This document shows positions 29,030-38,551 of a stretch of DNA of 64,000 bases, one piece after another. The stretch's first letter is position 1. Each line of letters begins with the position of its first letter. This DNA is from an uncultured cyanobacterium (GTDB lineage: Bacteria; Cyanobacteriota; Cyanobacteriia; Cyanobacteriales; Nostocaceae), in assembly GCA_963706595.1 (NCBI GenBank), contig OY970166.1:3264001-3328000 (forward strand), given 5' to 3'. The notes under the pieces were generated by a model. The model did no database searches and was not told the origin of the DNA. It saw only the letters and a program-made list of their open reading frames with translations. The position numbers and the translations under genes were made by a program.

Positions 29030-30577
29030 ATGAACCGCACAGACACAGAGGACAGGTCAAGCAAAAGGCAGATGGGATTAAGAATGTTCAATTTAAAATT
29101 GAGGTTGGGTAAGAGTAAGGGACTATTTTATAGTTTGATTCTGGCTGTTGCCTGTTTATTGGTCAGTTTTAACTTTTCTTTGGCGGCGACGGCGGCGGCG
29201 AAGCATTATACTGAGTTGGAACTTGCGCCGTTACCTGAGATTAAGTTGCCTAAAAATGAGCGCTTTGTTCTCAAAAACGGTTTGGTTGTGTATTTGATGG
29301 AGGATCACGATCTGCCGTTGGTGAATGGTACGGCTTTGATTCGCACAGGCGATCGCTTAGAACCAGCTGATAAAATCGGGTTGGCTGGTTTTACGGGTGC
29401 GGTGATGCGGACTGGGGGAACTCAGAAGCATTCGGCTGATCAAATCAATCAGATTTTGGAACAACGCGCTGCTAGTGTGGAAACTGCAATTGGTGAAGCT
29501 TCCGGTAGTGCTGGTTTTGAGTCTCTGACTGAAGATTTAGAAACAGTGTTTGATTTGTTTGCCGAGGTACTAAGAGAGCCTGTATTTGACCAAAAACAGT
29601 TAGATTTAGCAAAAACTCAGGCTAGGGGTGGTATTGCCCGTCGTAACGATGATCCAGACGATATTGCTAGCCGGGAATTTCAGAAATTAATTTATGGTCA
29701 AGATAGCCCCTATGCTCGCACACCTGAGTATGCGACGCTGGATAATATTTCTCGTGAGGATTTAGTTCAGTTTTACCAGGAATATTTTCATCCCAATCAG
29801 ATGATTTTGGGAATTGTGGGGGATTTTGAACCGCAAAAAATGCGATCGCTCATTCAAGCTAAGTTTGGTGATTGGGAACGTTCCCCTCAAATGACTCAGC
29901 CCCAATTATCCGAGGTAAAGCCAGCGAATACAGGTGGTGTATTTTTTGTCAATCAACCACAACTAACTCAGAGTAGTGTATTGATGGGGCATATCGGCGG
30001 TAAGTTTGACAATCCTGATTATGCCGCCTTGGATGTCTTGAATGGGGTATTAAATGGATTTGGTGGACGCTTATTAAATGAAGTGCGATCGCGCCAAGGA
30101 TTAGCATACTCTGTATATGGTTACTGGAGTCCTCGCTTCGATTATCCAGGAATGTTTATCGCCGGCGGACAAACGCGATCGGATGCTACAGTCCAGTTTG
30201 TCCAAGCCTTACAGACTGAAATCAAGCGTATCCAAGCCCAACCTGTTACCGCCCAGGAACTAGCTTATGCCAAAGAGTCTACCCTCAACTCCTTTGTCTT
30301 CAACTTCCAAGACCCCGCTCAAACTTTATCACGGTTGATGCGATACGAATATTACGGCTATCCGGCTGATTTCTTATTTCGCTATCAAAAAGCCGTAGCC
30401 GCCACAACAGAAGCTGATGTGCAACGGGTAGCGCGAGAATACCTCAAACCAGAAAAACTGGTGACTCTAGTCGTGGGGAATCAGACCGCCATACAACCGC
30501 CATTAACACAGTTAGCTGCATCAGTAACGCCCATAGATGTGACAATTCCAGGTTCACAAACACAGGCGCAAAATTAA
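29030..30577 (+). CDS. M16 family peptidase (non-catalytic partner subunit); start uncertain
   Basis: LKNGL, EDHDLP, RL..EVRSRQGLAYSV; lacks HxxEH. Confidence 0.88.
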   Translation: MNRTDTEDRSSKRQMGLRMFNLKLRLGKSKGLFYSLILAVACLLVSFNFSLAATAAAKHYTELELAPLPEIKLPKNERFVLKNGLVVYLMEDHDLPLVNGTALIRTGDRLEPADKIGLAGFTGAVMRTGGTQKHSADQINQILEQRAASVETAIGEASGSAGFESLTEDLETVFDLFAEVLREPVFDQKQLDLAKTQARGGIARRNDDPDDIASREFQKLIYGQDSPYARTPEYATLDNISREDLVQFYQEYFHPNQMILGIVGDFEPQKMRSLIQAKFGDWERSPQMTQPQLSEVKPANTGGVFFVNQPQLTQSSVLMGHIGGKFDNPDYAALDVLNGVLNGFGGRLLNEVRSRQGLAYSVYGYWSPRFDYPGMFIAGGQTRSDATVQFVQALQTEIKRIQAQPVTAQELAYAKESTLNSFVFNFQDPAQTLSRLMRYEYYGYPADFLFRYQKAVAATTEADVQRVAREYLKPEKLVTLVVGNQTAIQPPLTQLAASVTPIDVTIPGSQTQAQN

Positions 30578-30826
30578 AACTTACCTAGAGACGCGATTCA
30601 TCGCGTCTCTATTCCCATGAAAAGACTCAATATAAAAACTGTTAATACTATAAAAAAAATCTCTTTTAAAGACACAATTACTTGAGATTTGTCTAGAAAA
30701 TCACCAAAATTCTATTGACTTTTCTTAATCAAATTGCCAAATATAAAGAATAGATTATAATTTTGCAGCATAATCTTTTTGCAAGTCTTACTGAGTTTCA
30801 CTGTAAGTATTTCAGGAGTTAATTAC

Positions 30827-31087
30827 ATGGCTAGGATAGAAATTGATGACTTGTACCCTAGTAATCATCAACAGCTTCTCAATGAAATAACAGACAGGGA
30901 AATGCAGACAGTGGAGGGACGAGAAGGAAACACAGTCAGCACAGGAATCAATGACCTGAATGAACAATCTTTAGCCAATACATTAGAGCAAAATATCGAT
31001 AATCTTCTTTTTCACCTGAGAAACCAAATGGGTGTAGTGATTTTTGGTGCTAGAAATCAATTTAATCAAGGATTCAATTCTTTTTAA
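30827..31087 (+). CDS. Divergent precursor-like small protein (MARIEIDDLYP...VEGR)
   Basis: AGGAG RBS; leader resembles array leaders (MA.I.i.eL.P....lLnEitD....v.G). Confidence 0.55.
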   Translation: MARIEIDDLYPSNHQQLLNEITDREMQTVEGREGNTVSTGINDLNEQSLANTLEQNIDNLLFHLRNQMGVVIFGARNQFNQGFNSF

Positions 31088-31356
31088 TTAATTTTGATAT
31101 TCAAATAACCATCCATTTTGCGTTTAAATTTATTTAAATTTTGAAAATTTCTGATAAAAATCAATAGCCACGATAGCAATATTCAATGGTTTGCAAACAC
31201 CGCGAGGCTCAGATCCCCGACTTCTTGAAGAAGTCGGGGATTTTTATTTATTGAAAACTCTGGTTTCTTCAAGACACTGGGCTTTTGAAGTCTCACAATA
31301 TATTCCAGCGACTATTAAATCTACATTTTGTATGTTGCAATTATTCAAAGAAGTGT

Positions 31357-31462
31357 TATGGCGGTATGTACTTCAATGAAGTACATCATAGCCCCCTCCT
31401 CGCTTGCGGGGAGGGGGTTGGGGGTGGGGTTCTTGTATCTCACTTAACTGATAACCGCTATA
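31357..31462. mobile_element. MITE-like element with short terminal inverted repeats TATGGCGGT/ACCGCTATA enclosing a GC-rich palindrome
   Basis: Inverted ends visible; internal part matches 10510-10588. Confidence 0.6.
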
Positions 31463-31663
31463 GTCTCAATTCAAAAACATGATTTGTCAAATAAAACTGA
31501 TATTTTCAGAAAGACACAACTCTTGAATATATGTCTTTTTTAGGACGAATTTAACCTTGACTTTCTAGTTTTCAATCAATAAAAATGACAGTATCAGTTA
31601 AGCAAACACAGCTTGATTGCTTACCGATTTCATTTACCAGCGACAAATGCTTGAGGAGCTAAT

Positions 31664-31921
31664 ATGGCAAACATCAAATTGTCTAAGCTAAATGCTACTG
31701 GTTCTGAGTTATTCCTAGATTCTGAGAGTTTTCTCAATGAATTGAACGATGTCGATTCAATTACTGGTGGTAGTACCTCTGGTCAAGGTTACAACCAAGG
31801 CCACGGCTATGAAGGATTCAGTGGTATTTCAACACTAACTAAATTAGCCGAGGCATTTGTCACAGTCTATGCGATTGGTCATGTTACCGAGCTAGCCAAG
31901 TCATTCAGCCACGGATACTAA
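31664..31921 (+). CDS. Double-glycine RiPP precursor 1
   Basis: Leader MANIKLSKL.ATGSELF.DSESFLNEL.DVDSITGG; conserved core helix TLTKLAEAFVTVYAIGHVT.LAKSFS; GAGGAG RBS. Confidence 0.85.
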   Translation: MANIKLSKLNATGSELFLDSESFLNELNDVDSITGGSTSGQGYNQGHGYEGFSGISTLTKLAEAFVTVYAIGHVTELAKSFSHGY

Positions 31922-32094
31922 TGGCTTCAGGTAACTAGTAAGCTATCAGGCTCTTGCGGATTAGAGCTAATAAGTAATCTATGTGATTAACATGGACTTT
32001 CTTAATTATCAATAATCCCTGAGAGCCAACCAGCTTAAACAATTTTCTGTAAACTTGCTTAATTGCGACAAGACAAGACTGTTAGGAGTAAATC

Positions 32095-32331
32095 ATGGCG
32101 AATATCAAACTTTCTGAACTACACGCTGCTGGTTCTGAATTATTCAACGATTCTGAAAGTTTCTTGAATGAATTCAGCGATGTAGACTCCATTTCCGGTG
32201 GTGGAATTGGCGGCTACGCTGGAGGAGTTAGCAACCCAGCAACATTAATGAAGCTAGCTGAGGCATTTGTGACTGTATATGCTATTGGTCACGTGACCGT
32301 GTTAGCTAAATCATTCAGCGCAAACATTTAA
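32095..32331 (+). CDS. Double-glycine RiPP precursor 2
   Basis: Same leader ending SISGG and same C-terminal helix; AGGAG RBS. Confidence 0.87.
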   Translation: MANIKLSELHAAGSELFNDSESFLNEFSDVDSISGGGIGGYAGGVSNPATLMKLAEAFVTVYAIGHVTVLAKSFSANI

Positions 32332-32492
32332 TGGTTCTGGTTTACTACAGAGCTTGATGGTTTTCCAGGGATTAAAGATAAAAAGCTATCTATGTGAATA
32401 ACATGAGCTTTTGTTATTACCAATAATCCCTGTGGTCTAGCTAAATCTAAGCAATTTTCAGTTCATTACAACAAGTCTTTTAGGAGAAAATC

Positions 32493-32738
32493 ATGGCAAA
32501 TATTACACTGTCCGAATTAAACTCTGCTGGTTCTGAATTGTTTCAAGATTCTGAAAGTTTTTTGAATGAATTCAGCGATGTAGACTCCATCTCTGGTGGT
32601 CAAGGCTACGGTGGTGGACTAGGCGCTCAAGTTGCTGTCAGTGATCCTACGACACTGAATAAGCTCGCTGGCGCATTTGTGACTGTATATGCCATTGGTC
32701 ATGTAACTGTGTTAGCCAAGTCATTTAGTGGCATTTAA
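32493..32738 (+). CDS. Double-glycine RiPP precursor 3
   Basis: Same leader/helix architecture; AGGAG RBS. Confidence 0.87.
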   Translation: MANITLSELNSAGSELFQDSESFLNEFSDVDSISGGQGYGGGLGAQVAVSDPTTLNKLAGAFVTVYAIGHVTVLAKSFSGI

Positions 32739-32907
32739 TGACTTTGGGTAACTGCTGAAATTGATGGCTCTTTAGGAATTAAAGGTAAAAACTAATTTAT
32801 GTGATTACCAATAATTCCTAAGAGCCGACTAGACACCATCTTGATCTTCACTGAAACTAACAAGTCTTCACAAGTTCACAAGTTCACAAGTCTTTTAGGA
32901 GTACATC

Positions 32908-33159
32908 ATGGCAAATATCACTCTTTCTGAATTACACGCTGCTGGTTCTGAACTATTCAACGATTCTGAAAGTTTCTTGAATGAATTCAGCGATGTGGAT
33001 TCCATCTCTGGTGGAGCAGCAGTTGCCGCTACAGGTGCAACCTATGCCGCCAGCAATCCTTTGACACTGACCAAATTGGCTGAAGCCTTTGTGACTGTAT
33101 ATGCCATTGAACACGTAACTATCTTGGCTAAATCCTTCAGCCTAACTGGTGTTTACTAG
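32908..33159 (+). CDS. Double-glycine RiPP precursor 4
   Basis: Leader ends SISGG; core AAVAATGATYAASNPLTLTKLAEAFVTVYAIEHVTILAKSFSLTGVY. Confidence 0.87.
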   Translation: MANITLSELHAAGSELFNDSESFLNEFSDVDSISGGAAVAATGATYAASNPLTLTKLAEAFVTVYAIEHVTILAKSFSLTGVY

Positions 33160-33303
33160 CTCTAGTTAACAACTCGAATAAATGGCTCTTTGGGGATGAA
33201 AGGCATGATTTGATTACCACTTATCCCCAAGAGCCAGACAGATTCAACGCTCTCGATTTTCATTGAAACAAACAAGTCTTCACAAGTCTTTTAGGAGTAC
33301 ATC

Positions 33304-33573
33304 ATGGCTAATATCACTCTTTCTGAATTACACGCTGCTGGTTCTGAACTGTTCAACGATTCTGAAAGTTTCTTGAATGAACTCAGCGATGTTAATTCCA
33401 TCTCTGGTGGACAAATTGGCTACGCTGGTGGTGCTACCGTCGCTACAGGTGCAACCTATGCCGCCAGCAATCCTTTGTCACTGACCAAGTTGGCTGAAGC
33501 CTTTGTAACTGTATATGCCATTGAACACGTAACTATCTTGGCTAAATCCTTCAGCCTAACTGGTGTTTACTAA
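33304..33573 (+). CDS. Double-glycine RiPP precursor 5
   Basis: Paralog with extra QIGYAG-like segment after GG. Confidence 0.87.
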   Translation: MANITLSELHAAGSELFNDSESFLNELSDVNSISGGQIGYAGGATVATGATYAASNPLSLTKLAEAFVTVYAIEHVTILAKSFSLTGVY

Positions 33574-33721
33574 TCACTGTGATTAGTTACTTCAAATAAA
33601 TGGCTCTTTGGGGATGTAAGGCATGATTTGATTACCAGTAATCCCCAAGAGTTAGCCAAATTCAACGCTCTCGATTTTCACTGAAACAAACAAGTTCTCA
33701 CAAGTCTTTTAGGAGTACATC

Positions 33722-33973
33722 ATGGCTAATATCACTCTTTCTGAATTACACGCTGCTGGTTCTGAACTATTCAACGATTCTGAAAGTTTCTTGAATGAAT
33801 TCAGCGATGTAGATTCCATCTCTGGTGGAGCAGTAGTTGCCGCTACAGGTGCAACCTATGCCGCCAGCAATCCTTTCACATTGACCAAGTTAGCTGAAGC
33901 CTTTGTAACTGTATATGCCATTGAACACGTAACTATGTTGGCTAAATCCTTCAGCCTAACTGGTGTTTACTAG
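33722..33973 (+). CDS. Double-glycine RiPP precursor 6
   Basis: Near-identical to precursor 4. Confidence 0.87.
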   Translation: MANITLSELHAAGSELFNDSESFLNEFSDVDSISGGAVVAATGATYAASNPFTLTKLAEAFVTVYAIEHVTMLAKSFSLTGVY

Positions 33974-34117
33974 CTCTAGTTAACAACTCAAATAAATGGC
34001 TCTTTGGGGATTAAAGGCATGATTTGATGACCAGTAATCCCTAAGAGCCAGACAGATTCAACGCTCTCGATTTTCACTGAAATAAACAAGTCTTCACAAG
34101 TCTTTTAGGAGTACATC

Positions 34118-34369
34118 ATGGCTAATATCACTCTTTCTGAATTACACGCTGCTGGTGCTGAATTGTTCAACGATTCTGAAAGTTTCTTGAATGAATTTAG
34201 CGATGTCGATTCCATCTCTGGTGGTCAAGTTACCATCGCTACAGGTGCTACCTACGTCGCCAGCAATGCTAGTACATTGACCAAATTAGCTGAAGCTTTT
34301 GTAACTGTATATGCCATTGAACACGTAACTATCTTGGCTAAATCCTTCAGCATAAGTGGTGTTTACTAA
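34118..34369 (+). CDS. Double-glycine RiPP precursor 7
   Basis: Same architecture, ends SFSISGVY. Confidence 0.87.
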   Translation: MANITLSELHAAGAELFNDSESFLNEFSDVDSISGGQVTIATGATYVASNASTLTKLAEAFVTVYAIEHVTILAKSFSISGVY

Positions 34370-34517
34370 TCACTGTGATTAGTTACTTCAAATAAATGGC
34401 TCTTTGGGGATTAAAGGCATGATTTGATTACCAATAATCCCTAAGAGCCAGACAGATTCAACGCTCTCCATTTTCACTGAAACAAACAAGTCTTCACAAG
34501 TCTTTTAGGAGTACATC

Positions 34518-34769
34518 ATGGCTAATATAACTCTTTCTGAATTACACGCTGCTGGTTCTGAACTATTCAACGATTCTGAAAGTTTCTTGAATGAATTCAG
34601 CGATGTAGATTCCATCTCTGGTGGAGCAGCAGTTGCTGCTATAGGTGCAACCTATGCCGCCAGCAATCCTTTCACATTGACCAAGTTAGCTGAAGCTTTT
34701 GTAACTGTATATGCCATTGAACACGTAACTATCTTGGCTAAATCCTTCAGCATAAGTGGTGTTTACTAA
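34518..34769 (+). CDS. Double-glycine RiPP precursor 8
   Basis: Same architecture, ends SFSISGVY. Confidence 0.87.
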   Translation: MANITLSELHAAGSELFNDSESFLNEFSDVDSISGGAAVAAIGATYAASNPFTLTKLAEAFVTVYAIEHVTILAKSFSISGVY

Positions 34770-34917
34770 TCACTGTGATTAGTTACTTCAAATAAATGGC
34801 TCTTTGGGGATTAAAGGCATGATTTGATTACCAATAATCCCCAAGAGCCAGACAGACTCAACGTTCTTAATTTTTAAGAAAACAAATAAGTGTTCACAAG
34901 TCTTTTAGGAGTAATTC

Positions 34918-35163
34918 ATGGCAACTATCACTCTTGATCAACTATATGCTACTGGCTCTGAACTGTTCCACGATTCCGAAAGCTTTCTCAATGAACTGAG
35001 TGATGTCGATTCTAGCTCTAAGGATCAATACAACGTTGTCGGCGGCATAATTACATTCACTGCATTCGCTGGAGCATTTGTTGGTACGTATGCCATTGGT
35101 CATGCTACTTATGTGGCCAAGTCATATAGTCAACCATACTATGGGTATGGGCGGCGCTTCTAG
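34918..35163 (+). CDS. Divergent RiPP precursor 9
   Basis: Leader GSELFHDSESFLNELSDVD with GG shifted (NVVGG); core AGAFVGTYAIGHATYVAKSYS. Confidence 0.8.
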   Translation: MATITLDQLYATGSELFHDSESFLNELSDVDSSSKDQYNVVGGIITFTAFAGAFVGTYAIGHATYVAKSYSQPYYGYGRRF

Positions 35164-35617
35164 CTTTGTAGTTAACTATTAATCTTGATGGCTGTCTTGA
35201 GATTAAAGGTAAAAAGTAAGCAATTCTATCTGAGCAAAAACCTCATAATACAAAATAATGTTAAACATTCAGTTTCACATAAAATATAGAATTGCCCACT
35301 CTTATCTTAATCAGGTTTTGCATAACAAAAGCCTTACAGCCAGCCAAATTTAAAAAAATATGCTGTAATTCGATAACTAAATTGAAACTTAATTAAGACT
35401 AGGATCACAATTGGTGGATAAATCTGGCGACAATCGTCAAGATTGCTCAATTACCTAAATTAGATGAATTTAATTTAGTAGTCGTGGAAGATTGGGAATA
35501 AATGACAGTTTAACCTGAGCCAGGATAGCACATTAGTTGACGAATGATTAAGCTGACACTTACTGAAAGTAGCTAGCATTAATTCATTACTCAATATTTT
35601 GTGTGGAAATCAAGTAA

Positions 35618-35881
35618 ATGGCAAGAATTGTAATTTCTGAACTACACCCGACTAATTCCGAAAGCTTTTTAATCGAAATAACAGATATGTTTTCAATATC
35701 TGTGTATGGGGGGAATCAATATGTAATTGACTATGGATTTCATCAAATGCTGACCTTTACTTATAAGCTGATGGATTTTATGTTGTCAGCATTTGCTATC
35801 TACAGTATTGTCTCCCTTGCACATTCATTTATTACTGCGTCTGAGCTTAACTTTGCACCTGTTCAGTTTTACTCTTTCTAA
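35618..35881 (+). CDS. Divergent RiPP precursor 10
   Basis: Leader MARIVISELHP.NSESFL.EI.D....VYGG; core KLMDFMLSAFAIYSIVSLAHSF aligns with KLAEAFVTVYAIEHVTILAKSF. Confidence 0.72.
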   Translation: MARIVISELHPTNSESFLIEITDMFSISVYGGNQYVIDYGFHQMLTFTYKLMDFMLSAFAIYSIVSLAHSFITASELNFAPVQFYSF

Positions 35882-36015
35882 TTATTGAATCTAAGTTGAC
35901 ATGATGACTAAAAAAATGTTGTGTGCAATCAATGCTTGGATAGGAATCCTCTGGTTTTACAGTTTCTTGATTAACCAGGAACAAGTTTTCACATTACTGA
36001 GGAGTATTTAACGCC

Positions 36016-37197
36016 ATGCCATTTTTATTAAGCTATCAAAATGTTTTTGACTACCTAATTCCCCTGGGATTATGTACTGAAGAAGAACGTTCATTGAGCA
36101 ATATTGAACTAAAACCTGCTAAAAACTTTAACTTATTACTCAGTTTATCAGAGGATAAGAAACTGCTAGTTAAGCAAGAGCGTCACAACCGAGAAGGAAA
36201 AACCGCCGGTGAGTTTGTGCAGGAATGGCGAATTCATGAGTTTTTGCAAAGAAACCCTGAACTTAGCTATGTGCGCCCTTTGCTTTCAGAAGCAGTACAT
36301 TTTGATGCAGAAAATTCGATCATTATTTTCAACTATCTCAATAATTATCGAGATGTAGCGGATTTTTACACCAAGGAGAATATTTTTCCTACACAGGTGG
36401 CGACCAAAATTGGCACTATTCTGGCATTAATTCATCGCGTTAGTATTCAACGTCCTGAGTATCGGGAGTTCTTTGAAAATTCTCAGGATGTACCGAGTCA
36501 AGATCCACCCAAACTAAATCAGAGAATGGATCGGATTACGCCGGAAATCTTTGGTAACGTTCCGGCTGACGGGTTGAAATTCTTTGCTCTTTATCAACGT
36601 TACGATAGTTTGGGTCAGGCGATCGCACAAGTAGGTAATTCCTATACTCCTTACTGTTTGACTCATAACGACATGAAGCTAAACAACATTCTCATCTCCT
36701 TAAATTGGCAAGATGTGAATTTAAATAGCTCATCCTCAGACCAAAGCATGATTCGATTAATTGACTGGGAACGCTGTTCTTGGGGAGATCCAGCTATCGA
36801 TTTAGGCTCATTACTCGCTAGTTACTTGCAATTATGGCTGTATAGCGTAGTCGTTGGTAAAGGAATGGAAATTGAAGAGTCTTTACGTTTAGCTACAACG
36901 CCTTTGCAAACACTCCGTCCTTCACTTGCTGCACTAGTTAAAGCTTATTTAGCAGAATTCCCCCAAATCTTAGAAGATCGTCCTGATTTCCTGCAACGAG
37001 TAGTGCAGTTTTGCGGTTTAGCCTTAATTCAATCTATTCAAGCCACACTCCAGCATGAAAAAACTTTTGGTAATCCTGGTATCAGTATGCTCCAAGTTGC
37101 TAAGAGTTTATTGTGTCGTCCAGAAGCATCTATACCCACTATTTTCGGTATGGATGCGTCGGATTTGACTCCTACTCAATATTCATCTGCACGTTAA
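36016..37197 (+). CDS. Aminoglycoside-phosphotransferase-like kinase (LanK-like, putative peptide Ser/Thr kinase)
   Basis: LLVKQE, LTHNDMKLNNIL (HxDxxxxN), RLIDWE, GDPAIDLG; adjacent to HopA1-like gene. Confidence 0.85.
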   Translation: MPFLLSYQNVFDYLIPLGLCTEEERSLSNIELKPAKNFNLLLSLSEDKKLLVKQERHNREGKTAGEFVQEWRIHEFLQRNPELSYVRPLLSEAVHFDAENSIIIFNYLNNYRDVADFYTKENIFPTQVATKIGTILALIHRVSIQRPEYREFFENSQDVPSQDPPKLNQRMDRITPEIFGNVPADGLKFFALYQRYDSLGQAIAQVGNSYTPYCLTHNDMKLNNILISLNWQDVNLNSSSSDQSMIRLIDWERCSWGDPAIDLGSLLASYLQLWLYSVVVGKGMEIEESLRLATTPLQTLRPSLAALVKAYLAEFPQILEDRPDFLQRVVQFCGLALIQSIQATLQHEKTFGNPGISMLQVAKSLLCRPEASIPTIFGMDASDLTPTQYSSAR

Positions 37198-37206
37198 AGC
37201 GTTTGG

Positions 37207-37404
37207 AAGACGCGATAGAAGACGCGATAAATCGCGTGATAGAAGACGCGATAAATCGCGTCTCTACAAAATATTTGGAAGCCCCCTCATCGCTTGCGGG
37301 GAGGGGGTTGGGGGTGGGGTTCTTGTACCTCATAACACCGGGAAGACGCGATAAATCGCGTCTCTACACAATATTTGGAAGACGCGATTTATCGCGTCTC
37401 TACA
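37207..37404. repeat. Cluster of GACGCGATAAATCGCGTCTCTAC palindromes plus GC-rich repeat between the kinase and HopA1 genes
   Basis: Four to five copies of AGACGCGATAAATCGCG(TCTCTACA); related units near 30587, 39076 and 41765. Confidence 0.85.
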
Positions 37405-37444: not shown

Positions 37445-38551
37445 ATGCAACTATTAGATTCGCTACAAACACAACTAGCTACTATTCCTGAGCCTTTGCA
37501 GACATCAATACAAGACATTATTCATAAAGTTGAAATTGTTTCCCATCATTGTATTAAGCACCCAAACTATAAAAGCGTAGAATTAACTGAGCAAGCAGTT
37601 TCCCGCTTTCAAAAATTGCCGTTAGACCTCCAGAACAAATATTTAGCACTCCAATTGCGTAGTTTTCTTTATGGTGTCTACTACAACGGTTCTTTGCAAG
37701 AGGAACTCAATCTCACATCAGATGGAGAGTCAAAAAATGTAGCATTGAATCGGGATTTAGAAAATAATAGCTTTTTGGGTGTAGATATCGGTTTCTATGA
37801 CCGCTTACATGAAAGTAACAGAGGTGAAGGCTACTTCAGCCACGATTGGCTGGTAATCAAAGAAGAAACAGATGGTGCTTTGGCTGTGCATAAGGGTGGT
37901 TTAACTCTGCACATTGAGCGTGAGCAACACTTGCGACCAGAAGATCAAGCTGTAACTATCGGTAGTTTAGTTCCGATCAAATTACCCAAGAATGTGGTGC
38001 AGAATGGATTCTATATGGCAGTTGGCAATGAAGCTGCTCATGGTGATCAAGAAATAGTCAGGATCTACTTTAATTTATCCCCAGACGGTGCTGTTGCTGT
38101 CATGGATGGTTTGACTACCCAACTCAATGCTCTGCCAATTTCCTTCACATTTAAAGCCCTATATAATCCTACAGATTATGGACGTTGTGACTCAGCAGTG
38201 CTTTACTTTGACAAACACAACTATGAAGTTGTTCGTCCAGTATTAGAACGGGTGTATACAGAAAATAAATCACATTTTGGCGATTCAGTGCCTTTGTTTA
38301 CTAAATTACTTGCGCCAGGGTTAGCTCTTGCGGAAGAACCAAATAGCAAGTTTACAGACCGTGAAAGTTTTGGGATGAACCGATGCCAAATTATTGCTAA
38401 TGCTTTGCTTGATGTTTGGCAGCAAGATAATGATACGCCAGCAGGTAGGTTAGAATCTATTCTGAAACATTTCTCTATGCTGGAAATTGAATTGCAACGT
38501 CCTTATCTCAATTCCCATTCTGAAGATATCTTTACTTCTTTGCAGTTTTGA
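37445..38551 (+). CDS. T3SS effector HopA1-family protein (LanY-like phospho-lyase)
   Basis: LRSFLYGVYY, GFYMAVG, VRIYFNL, F.FKAL..P..YGRCDSAVLYF, VPLFTK.LAPGLALAEEP, ESFGMNRCQIIA. Confidence 0.85.
   Translation: MQLLDSLQTQLATIPEPLQTSIQDIIHKVEIVSHHCIKHPNYKSVELTEQAVSRFQKLPLDLQNKYLALQLRSFLYGVYYNGSLQEELNLTSDGESKNVALNRDLENNSFLGVDIGFYDRLHESNRGEGYFSHDWLVIKEETDGALAVHKGGLTLHIEREQHLRPEDQAVTIGSLVPIKLPKNVVQNGFYMAVGNEAAHGDQEIVRIYFNLSPDGAVAVMDGLTTQLNALPISFTFKALYNPTDYGRCDSAVLYFDKHNYEVVRPVLERVYTENKSHFGDSVPLFTKLLAPGLALAEEPNSKFTDRESFGMNRCQIIANALLDVWQQDNDTPAGRLESILKHFSMLEIELQRPYLNSHSEDIFTSLQF

Follow-up and report, generated by a model that had tools for sequence, protein, structure and literature searches.

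The question raised by this locus is why the genes of a tandem peptide-precursor array should be followed, one after the other, by a long inverted repeat. The array lies in a stretch of 64,000 nt from the genome of an uncultured Nostocaceae cyanobacterium (contig OY970166.1, positions 3,264,001 to 3,328,000 of the forward strand; hereafter the window), for which the list of open reading frames (ORFs) gives ten tandem ORFs of 78–89 aa on the same strand at 31664–35881. These ORFs have in common an N-terminal leader with a double-glycine-type motif at its end, followed by a variable middle and a conserved C-terminal part, and they constitute a precursor array of the RiPP type (peptides synthesised on the ribosome and modified post-translationally) in a Nostocales genome. 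An initial annotation of the window had read the repeats as a selected RNA structure that is not a classic terminator. This part of the proposal agrees with the covariation, the excess of G:U over A:C, the exclusive association with one gene family and the T-depleted tails described below, and a structure selected as sense-strand RNA, beyond chance or mere duplication, is strongly supported by the sequence comparisons. As regards its function, we give about even chances to a 3' stabiliser that permits read-through, acting in cis in the 3' untranslated region (UTR) of each precursor cistron and setting the abundance of precursor mRNA.

The hairpin was present in nine of the nine array spacers, as eight canonical copies (H1–H8) and one branched variant, and the ORF list, the sequence and a repeat search agreed on the places at which an inverted repeat had been annotated (arms at 32772-32788/32805-32821, 32366-32384/32414-32432, 33183-33194/33225-33236, 33997-34008/34039-34050, and 35181-35195/35336-35350). 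Folding energies of H1–H8 were calculated with RNAfold and compared with 200 dinucleotide shuffles each, while the bit scores refer to two covariance models, namely R1, built from H1–H8 alone, and R2, built from the 87 R1 matches described further below.

31949..32027, plus strand: hairpin H1, long form with apical extension; -35.0 kcal/mol, z -5.9; R1 45 bits, R2 70.7 bits
32359..32439, plus strand: hairpin H2, long form; -26.4 kcal/mol, z -2.7; R1 57.2 bits
32766..32826, plus strand: hairpin H3, intermediate form; -28.0 kcal/mol, z -5.7; R1 76 bits
33183..33236, plus strand: hairpin H4, short form; -28.9 kcal/mol, z -5.4; R1 86.4 bits
33601..33658, plus strand: hairpin H5, short form, weakest copy; -19.2 kcal/mol, z -1.75; R1 77.4 bits
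33997..34050, plus strand: hairpin H6, short form; -29.0 kcal/mol, z -5.1; R1 85.9 bits
34397..34450, plus strand: hairpin H7, short form; -23.8 kcal/mol, z -4.4; R1 89.8 bits
34797..34850, plus strand: hairpin H8, short form; -26.1 kcal/mol, z -5.1; R1 90.7 bits
35189..35342, plus strand: branched variant of spacer 9, outer stem UGGCUGU/ACAGCCA; RNAfold of 35186-35346, -39.6 kcal/mol, z -5.5

For six of the eight canonical hairpins none of the shuffles folded as well (0/200), the others being H2 (2/200) and H5 (15/200). The annotated coordinates were accurate overall, except for H5, which extends over 33601-33658 instead of 33602-33653 and has its 3' arm displaced by a UU bulge (GAG-UU-AGCC). 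Taken together, H1–H8 form a deletion series that runs from H1 and H2, with an additional apical hairpin, through the intermediate H3 to the short copies H4–H8, the basal stem and the inner GG/CC pairs being common to all; the lower stem of 16–17 bp is continued by an upper stem beyond a conserved symmetric A-A/A-A internal loop, and the loops or apical parts comprise ~20–50 nt. H2 has kept its core CAGGGAUUA/UAAUCCCUG (32366-32374/32424-32432) with a degraded outer stem, and H3 (AGGAAUUA/UAAUUCCU) contains two compensatory changes. In spacer 9 the annotated pairing of GGCTGT with ACAGCC holds, not as a simple hairpin but as the outer stem of the branched variant, inside which a long hairpin (about 35201-35312) is followed by a small one (35313-35334). 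The fold of 35186-35346 was matched by 0/200 shuffles, R2 recognised the 5' part of the spacer (35185-35275, E 1.4e-3), and the branched architecture recurs in the corresponding spacers of four related loci (L020, L040, L026, and L052; L numbers denote members of the locus set described in the next paragraph). A small ORF starting from the ATG within AUGGCUC was considered as well and rejected, being not conserved and stopped after three codons in H3.

The comparison was based on 74 related loci from Nostocales genomes together with the window (75 sources), in which a hidden Markov model of the ten window proteins detected 246 precursor ORFs. R1 gave 140 matches at E <= 1, 87 of them with E < 9e-4 and all of these (87/87) on the gene strand; R2 gave 116 matches on the plus strand (E <= 0.01), spread over 47 of the 75 sources, and 23 on the minus strand, each mirroring a plus-strand one. 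The model-fitted alignment of the 87 matches comprises 84 distinct rows and 18 pairs; of its 1484 stem cells, 91.2% were paired, as compared with 83.1% in shuffles and 27–55% when the partners were slid by 1–3 columns. A compensatory change was seen in 14 of the 18 pairs, both sides had changed in 122 cells against 27.6 expected, and 0/500 shuffles attained the observed values. Since this alignment depends on R1, the count was repeated on a MAFFT-only alignment of 40 long forms with 30 hand-written pairs, where 81.3% of cells were paired overall and 89–90% in the 16 outer pairs (shuffles 76.0%; partners slid by 1–3 columns 32–52%). Here, compensatory changes occurred in 20 of 30 pairs (11/16 among the outer ones) and both-side changes in 74 cells against 27.9 expected; four of the five measures were attained by 0/500 shuffles, and the remaining one, further pair types, by 4/500. 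Both alignments thus bear out the annotated view that divergent copies keep pairing through compensatory changes, and the inner AAAGG/TTACCA-like segments said to be retained correspond to GG(UAA)/(UUA)CC, i.e., helix 3, which is 80.9% paired in the MAFFT-only alignment. The inner helices of that alignment pair less (57–81%), partly through alignment uncertainty. RNAalifold, another of the suggested checks, returned zero pairs on the MAFFT alignment of the 40 long forms. Common ancestry links the copies of one array, and likewise the arrays of one genus, so that these counts are not independent, and the covariation statistics ignore kinship.

As to the molecule on which selection acts, G:U and U:G outnumbered A:C and C:A by 130:30 in the stem cells of the model-fitted alignment and by 62:18 on the outer stem of the MAFFT alignment. 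An excess of G:T over A:C on this strand is not what a cruciform in the DNA, a palindrome bound by protein or an antisense RNA would produce, and we therefore take the sense-strand RNA to be the selected object. A DNA-level or non-functional origin, be it a repetitive extragenic palindromic (REP) element or a miniature inverted-repeat transposable element (MITE), a cruciform that expands the array, a target hairpin of the diversity-generating retroelement (DGR) type or a mere passenger of duplication, appears scarcely credible to us. The near identity of H4–H8 is what recent duplication predicts, and the palindromic arms let the minus strand score weakly too (the 23 mirror matches), but the asymmetry just described is strand-specific, compensatory changes reach across genera, no reverse transcriptase lies within about 300 kb, and all 10 matches in the own genome (E < 1e-4) as well as all 50 in nine congeners lie in precursor arrays. 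A dispersed palindromic repeat (REP/MITE) was rejected on the confinement of significant matches to precursor arrays in these genomes, and a DGR target hairpin on the five RVT_1 matches of the genome, the nearest of which is about 327 kb from the array.

In the own genome (5.57 Mb), the ten R1 matches with E < 1e-4 comprise eight in the window array and two in a second precursor array; nine further matches are weak (E 0.02–0.9), and eight of these overlap in one repetitive stretch outside the window (C1:3342374-3343352, roughly 70–200 nt apart), which probably represents hairpin-forming units that are repeated in tandem and unrelated. When 20 relatives were searched with R1, 50 matches at E <= 1e-3 were obtained in nine of ten same-genus genomes, and none in ten genomes of other genera, two of which have precursor homologues. 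Compared by hand with the precursor matches, 47 of the 50 congener hairpins lie just 3' of a same-strand precursor match, two are situated at the ends of contigs that truncate the upstream gene, and the remaining one is the second hairpin of a long spacer. No significant R1 match fell outside precursor arrays in the eleven genomes of 5–6 Mb (own and congeners). Judged by these searches, the hairpin is exclusive to this precursor gene family and not a dispersed repeat. Rfam 15, also named in the annotation as a check, yielded 9 chance-level matches at E <= 10 within 30500–36500, none near the gathering score and none on a hairpin, so that no known family matches; a published description was likewise not found in the full-text literature searched, a coverage outside which subscription journals lie.

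Apart from the pairing, some letters are conserved as such: the GGG/CCC core is near-invariant (75–80 of 84 rows per pair), and the 5' flank reads U(A/U)(A/G)AU, with its first column identical in 40/40 rows. Both features, together with the exclusive link to this gene family, would be expected if a dedicated partner, either an RNA-binding protein or a nuclease, recognised the hairpin by its basal stem, a bulged U and the 5' flank. The cluster yielded no candidate gene for an RNA-binding protein, however, and the hairpin of different sequence found at the same place in distant arrays fits a structural need better, which leaves such a partner a very slim chance. By analogy with the dicing of CRISPR transcripts, the hairpins could also be the repeat units of a processing array, in which a dedicated factor would target the GGCUCU...AGAGCC basal stem with its GGG/CCC core, the bulged U and the U(A/U)(A/G)AU flank, and would dice the transcript into monocistronic precursor messages of ~400 nt. 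The chance we give to this proposal is slim; if it were true, the dose of each peptide variant would depend on how long the array is and how many hairpins it has.

The precursor genes that lack the hairpin are informative as well. Of the 245 precursor ORFs followed by 120 nt or more of sequence, 100 had an R1 match within 130 nt (R2: 106/245), and the genes without a match are of four types. The first consists of the two divergent last genes of the arrays. The second is represented by 17 short spacers (53–81 nt) devoid of the hairpin; the seven arrays with such spacers (L024, L031, L032, L044, L029, L036, and L046) all have one hairpin after the last typical copy. The third type is found in distant arrays (L063, L069, L071-L073, L048, L049, and L028), which carry a hairpin of different sequence at the equivalent place, and its alignment again shows compensatory as well as wobble changes. 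R2 fails to reach these class-2 spacers in L063, L069, and L071-L073, where a small GAGCU-AAAU-AGCUC hairpin is followed by the main GCGAUUAAGC...GCUUAAUCGC hairpin. The 5' flank of the distant hairpins (TAAATAGCTCTGTTG) resembles that of the window hairpin (TAAATGGCTCTTTGG), which suggests that they may be a rearranged homologue. In the first 26 nt past the stop of L047, L048, L051, and L024, a small extra hairpin that takes in the stop codon (UAGCUUUGUAGUU.ACUACU.AGCUA) stands before the main one; the window spacers do not consistently form it. The fourth type comprises orphan precursor genes with a canonical-looking CCCGA...UCGGG hairpin (L011, L013, L016, and the orphan of the own genome at C1:5213131-5213382, minus strand, which has a canonical terminator). 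A simple 'best hairpin domain' measure (8 shuffles per spacer) discriminated poorly, with dG <= -20 in 124 of 156 internal spacers and in 29% of the shuffles.

Where the hairpin is present, its position is tied to the preceding gene. The stems begin 23–28 nt past the stop codon in the window, in line with the 25–30 nt annotated, and at a median of 28 nt in the relatives (interquartile range 26–31, n = 86), whereas the next start codon is a median of 60.5 nt away and can be as far off as 386 nt. Given the known extent of the ribosome footprint, the stem would start just beyond the reach of a terminating ribosome. Hairpin length varies between 31 and 96 nt in the same 86 copies, with apical parts deleted or expanded and the basal stem kept. 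Since the family hairpin is maintained behind precursor genes with a convergent next neighbour (L008, L014, L018, and L019) and arrays have no hairpin ahead of their first gene, it belongs to the upstream cistron. The same observations, and a spacing that is tight to the upstream stop codon but loose to the downstream start codon, render it very improbable that the hairpin is a 5' stabiliser of the following cistron, left at the 5' end of the next unit by an upstream cleavage and shielding it from 5'-end-dependent decay.

The tails behind the stems are depleted in T, the 10 nt 3' of the stem containing 2.1 T on average against 3.16 nearby, and the longest T run is 3 (85 distinct copies), by which the lack of a U-tract annotated for the window is extended to the family. 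A terminator scan of the array called none at the hairpins, and the hairpins of the window have neither the short loop (~3–8 nt) nor the U-tract of a canonical intrinsic terminator. Terminator-type structures occur elsewhere: the family hairpin of L008 and L009 has another, terminator-like hairpin 20 nt behind it, and the second array of the own genome (C1:1416876-1418204; loci L087, L088, and L090) has four precursor genes, of which genes 1–3 are followed by family hairpins (gene 1 by an additional hairpin too) and gene 4 by a terminator-type CCCCGAC...GUCGGGG hairpin and then a convergent ORF. On the evidence of L008/L009 and of this array, internal positions are taken by the U-less family hairpin and terminal ones by the terminator type. 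The second array has no enzyme genes downstream and the family hairpins are still present, hence they are not merely an attenuator before enzyme genes.

These data bear directly on a leaky, non-canonical terminator or attenuator, according to which each hairpin would stop or pause some RNA polymerases without a U-tract, resulting in a 5'-to-3' gradient along the array and a low flux into the kinase and HopA1 genes behind it; we consider it unlikely. It would suit the position directly behind the precursor ORFs and the arrays with short spacers, whose one hairpin stands at the border before the divergent genes and the enzymes. Cyanobacteria are moreover without Rho, and most transcription units of Synechococcus elongatus end by unknown means (PMC12642595, in the excerpt available), while the mccA-mccB terminator sets a precursor/enzyme ratio likewise (excerpt of PMC4231749). 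On the other hand, the tails are T-depleted and not just neutral, the loops and internal loops are large, and read-through in S. elongatus rises as U content falls (PMC12642595). Orphan and terminal genes use other, canonical-looking hairpins, with L008/L009 adding one behind the family hairpin, the family hairpins persist in an array with nothing downstream to attenuate, and RNA contigs of relatives (see below) bridge H1–H3.

A stabiliser at the 3' end fits best because the stem is fixed behind the ORF, the tails are poor in U, the apical length is free while the base is conserved, the hairpins persist in the enzyme-less array and terminator-type hairpins take their place at the true transcript ends. 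In such a scheme, one promoter upstream of gene 1 would drive the entire array, and RNA polymerase would pass through the hairpins for want of a U-tract. An endonuclease would then cut the untranslated, A-rich linker of ~60 nt that separates each hairpin from the ribosome-binding site after it, after which 3'-to-5' exonucleases would trim the RNA to the base of the stem and halt there, leaving long-lived units of ~0.35–0.4 kb (or multiples), each with a terminal hairpin. The outcome would be abundant precursor mRNA with transcription of the distal genes unblocked, a control of the selective RNA processing and stabilisation (SRPS) type; the linker cleavage, the exonuclease block and the precursor mRNA excess are all parts that we infer. 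The structural side of an SRPS-type element, a stable 3' UTR stem-loop inside a polycistronic unit and without a terminator tail, is present here. Among the functions offered in the initial annotation, 3' protection has the best anatomical fit, in view of the genes with convergent neighbours, the enzyme-less array and the lengths of 31–96 nt. A passive barrier is plausible, as the basal stem is kept throughout this range of lengths and 7/7 short-spacer arrays retain one hairpin. Stem-loops in the 3' UTRs of selected operon genes are described as setting transcript stoichiometry in the parts of PMC8219983 and PMC5927463 consulted, and in S. elongatus U-tract strength tracks termination efficiency (PMC12642595, excerpt). 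An RN-WUU-like motif, resembling the enterobacterial RNase E preference quoted in PMC6238624 (excerpt), begins 4 nt past the stem in 35 of 114 tails; counted over the whole 20-nt tail, 73 of 114 contain it, as compared with 41.7% of nearby 20-mers. It is suggestive of an RNase E-type site, as a hint only, and shared ancestry could also explain it.

Cleavage within the hairpin itself, by an RNase III-type enzyme acting in the stem or at the A-A/A-A internal loop and producing monocistronic units with a partial stem, is in our opinion rather improbable. The lower stem of 16–17 bp with an upper stem past the conserved symmetric internal loop could suit such an enzyme, and the long forms, which reach about 35 interrupted pairs, have the roughly two helical turns of double-stranded RNA expected of an RNase III substrate. 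Short natural variants, however, have ~11 pairs and a 7-nt loop (L002, 5459-5497 and 5818-5856), and the upper stem and internal loop are missing in L006, L025, and L027. Because such short variants exist, neither the helix length nor the putative cut site is conserved, but only the basal stem.

RNA data were available as assembled contigs of relatives, from 20 runs in which parts of the stretch occur in small shares (0.06–0.16), and four runs were placed at a likeness of at least 90% (Logan contigs). The contigs X2 record 18 (31501-32912), X7 record 27 (31550-32912), and X1 (32344-32920) span between them genes 1–3 and H1–H3, and such bridging of H1–H3 is compatible with read-through. A G-rich dispersed repeat (…GGGGAGGGGGTTGGGGGTGGGG…) located at ~31380-31470 beside the array and at ~37270-37345 between the kinase and HopA1 genes attracted a high-depth pile-up of relatives' RNA contigs, leading to a false joint of 31462 to 37280.

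Several points weigh against the 3' stabiliser. The relatives' RNA contigs show neither transcript ends nor half-lives nor levels, and in X7 the contig with gene 10 and the kinase has a depth of 65.8 as compared with 39.8 for the contig with genes 1–3, which does not point to a large excess of precursor, although contig depth is unfit for ranking genes. The 17 short spacers without a hairpin imply that it is not required by every cistron, and in S. elongatus only 75 of 163 defined 3' ends that lack a U-tract have strong upstream structure (PMC12642595, excerpt), so that protection by a hairpin is not the prevailing mode known among cyanobacteria. Copies inside one array are recently related, hence the counts overstate the number of independent events. 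Finally, the GGG/CCC core and the U(A/U)(A/G)AU flank are conserved beyond the need of a thermodynamic barrier, leaving room for a sequence-specific partner.

The genomic setting of the hairpins is given by the following features.

31557..31586, plus strand: candidate array promoter TTGACT-18-AAAAAT, from a consensus scan only
31664..31921, plus strand: precursor gene 1, 85 aa, double-glycine-type leader
32095..32331, plus strand: precursor gene 2, 78 aa
32493..32738, plus strand: precursor gene 3, 81 aa
32908..33159, plus strand: precursor gene 4, 83 aa
33304..33573, plus strand: precursor gene 5, 89 aa
33722..33973, plus strand: precursor gene 6, 83 aa
34118..34369, plus strand: precursor gene 7, 83 aa
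34518..34769, plus strand: precursor gene 8, 83 aa
34918..35163, plus strand: precursor gene 9, 81 aa, divergent core
35618..35881, plus strand: gene 10, the most divergent leader-bearing ORF, 87 aa
36016..37197, plus strand: kinase of the APH fold (PF01636), LxmK-like, downstream enzyme gene (NF038156, 5e-23)
37445..38551, plus strand: HopA1-family protein, candidate LxmY-like lyase (PF17914, 4.9e-60)

The site at 31557-31586 is the sole promoter-like site that the consensus scan found ahead of gene 1, none being detected in the short spacers, and the starts of the relatives' RNA contigs at 31501, 31550, and 31614 are a weak hint for a promoter there. No family hairpin lies behind gene 10. 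The nearest public locus belongs to a Nodularia strain (93% amino-acid identity). With regard to the class of peptide, the HopA1-like partner expected of a class V lanthipeptide cluster is present, while the likeness of the kinase to LxmK is weak (NF038156 81.7 bits, cut-off 315, thus below equivalog level) and none of the ten translated precursor ORFs (0/10) contains a Cys, which the core peptide would need to form a thioether. Genes for a UbiA-type prenyltransferase and a HAD hydrolase lie nearby, as do, on the other strand, those for a PPIase, an HlyD protein and a C39-peptidase ABC exporter, and two M16 peptidases are located upstream of the array.

Some further observations concern the array and its borders. 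Between gene 10 and the kinase an unlisted hydrophobic ORF of 36 aa (35901-36011, plus strand) was noticed, which may be a small membrane protein of the cluster; the stretch is also found in L002, L003, L005, and L020, with mostly conservative differences. Upstream of the array, an ORF at 30779-31087 (plus strand) has an internal Met followed by a leader-like sequence resembling the start of gene 10, and a canonical terminator stands behind it (31211-31243, a 15-pair stem and then a T-rich tail). An imperfect inverted repeat at 33070-33090/33130-33150 (71–76% complementary, core GGCTGAAG/CTTCAGCC) recurs at the same place in genes 5–8; it sits in the conserved 3' coding part of genes 4–8 and is absent from gene 1, on account of which it is probably a by-product of the peptide sequence.

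The hairpin is a familiar type of control element but a previously uncatalogued family, absent from Rfam 15 and from the literature searched. It adds a well-supported structured RNA motif, tied to a peptide-precursor family widespread in Nostocales, and the nine natural variants of a U-less hairpin in one operon offer a test bed for separating stabilisation from termination. In the heterologous expression of such clusters, retaining or removing the hairpins is likely to alter the precursor supply.

A hairpin behind small genes is known from other systems as well. The intercistronic hairpin of the puf operon, located behind the small structural genes pufBA, protects the upstream segment, and the distal segment reportedly decays after RNase E cleavage, so that unequal stoichiometry arises from one promoter, a segmental decay that is said to have been measured. 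The puf system differs from the present case in phylum and sequence family and has a single site as opposed to one per tandem gene. In lantibiotic clusters, inverted repeats between the precursor gene lanA and the modification genes are held to give excess precursor mRNA; they are usually described as weak terminators and occur in one copy per cluster. Nothing comparable for cyanobacterial arrays was encountered in the literature searched.

Within the phylum, 3'-end formation and protection are largely unexplained, to go by the excerpt of PMC12642595. The hupS-hupL hairpin of heterocystous cyanobacteria (PMC3610870, excerpt) is likewise intercistronic and comes from the same cyanobacterial order, but it lies between two subunit genes, has a different sequence and no tandem repetition, and its function is merely proposed; word searches of PMC3140520 and PMC3610870 gave no mention of the present hairpins or arrays. 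The REP elements of Escherichia coli are dispersed over hundreds of intergenic sites (PMC12642595, excerpt), whereas the hairpin described here follows only one gene family. The mccA-mccB terminator of microcin C is similar in being a structure behind a peptide-precursor ORF, and an abundant short precursor transcript is accompanied there by a minor read-through transcript for the enzymes; it is, however, a true intrinsic terminator under ribosome-binding control, while the tails here are T-depleted and the hairpins also occur in an array without enzymes (PMC4231749, excerpt, for microcin C). Closest in kind are the SRPS stem-loops of the Clostridium cip-cel operon, which are stable, tail-less 3' UTR structures proposed to block decay and thereby to set stoichiometry (PMC8219983, in the part consulted). 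The structures that protect parts of operons with differential decay (PMC5927463) would be expected to act alike. Compared with these operons, the present element is known from sequence alone, and it consists of one hairpin family that follows up to nine paralogous cistrons and covaries across many genera.

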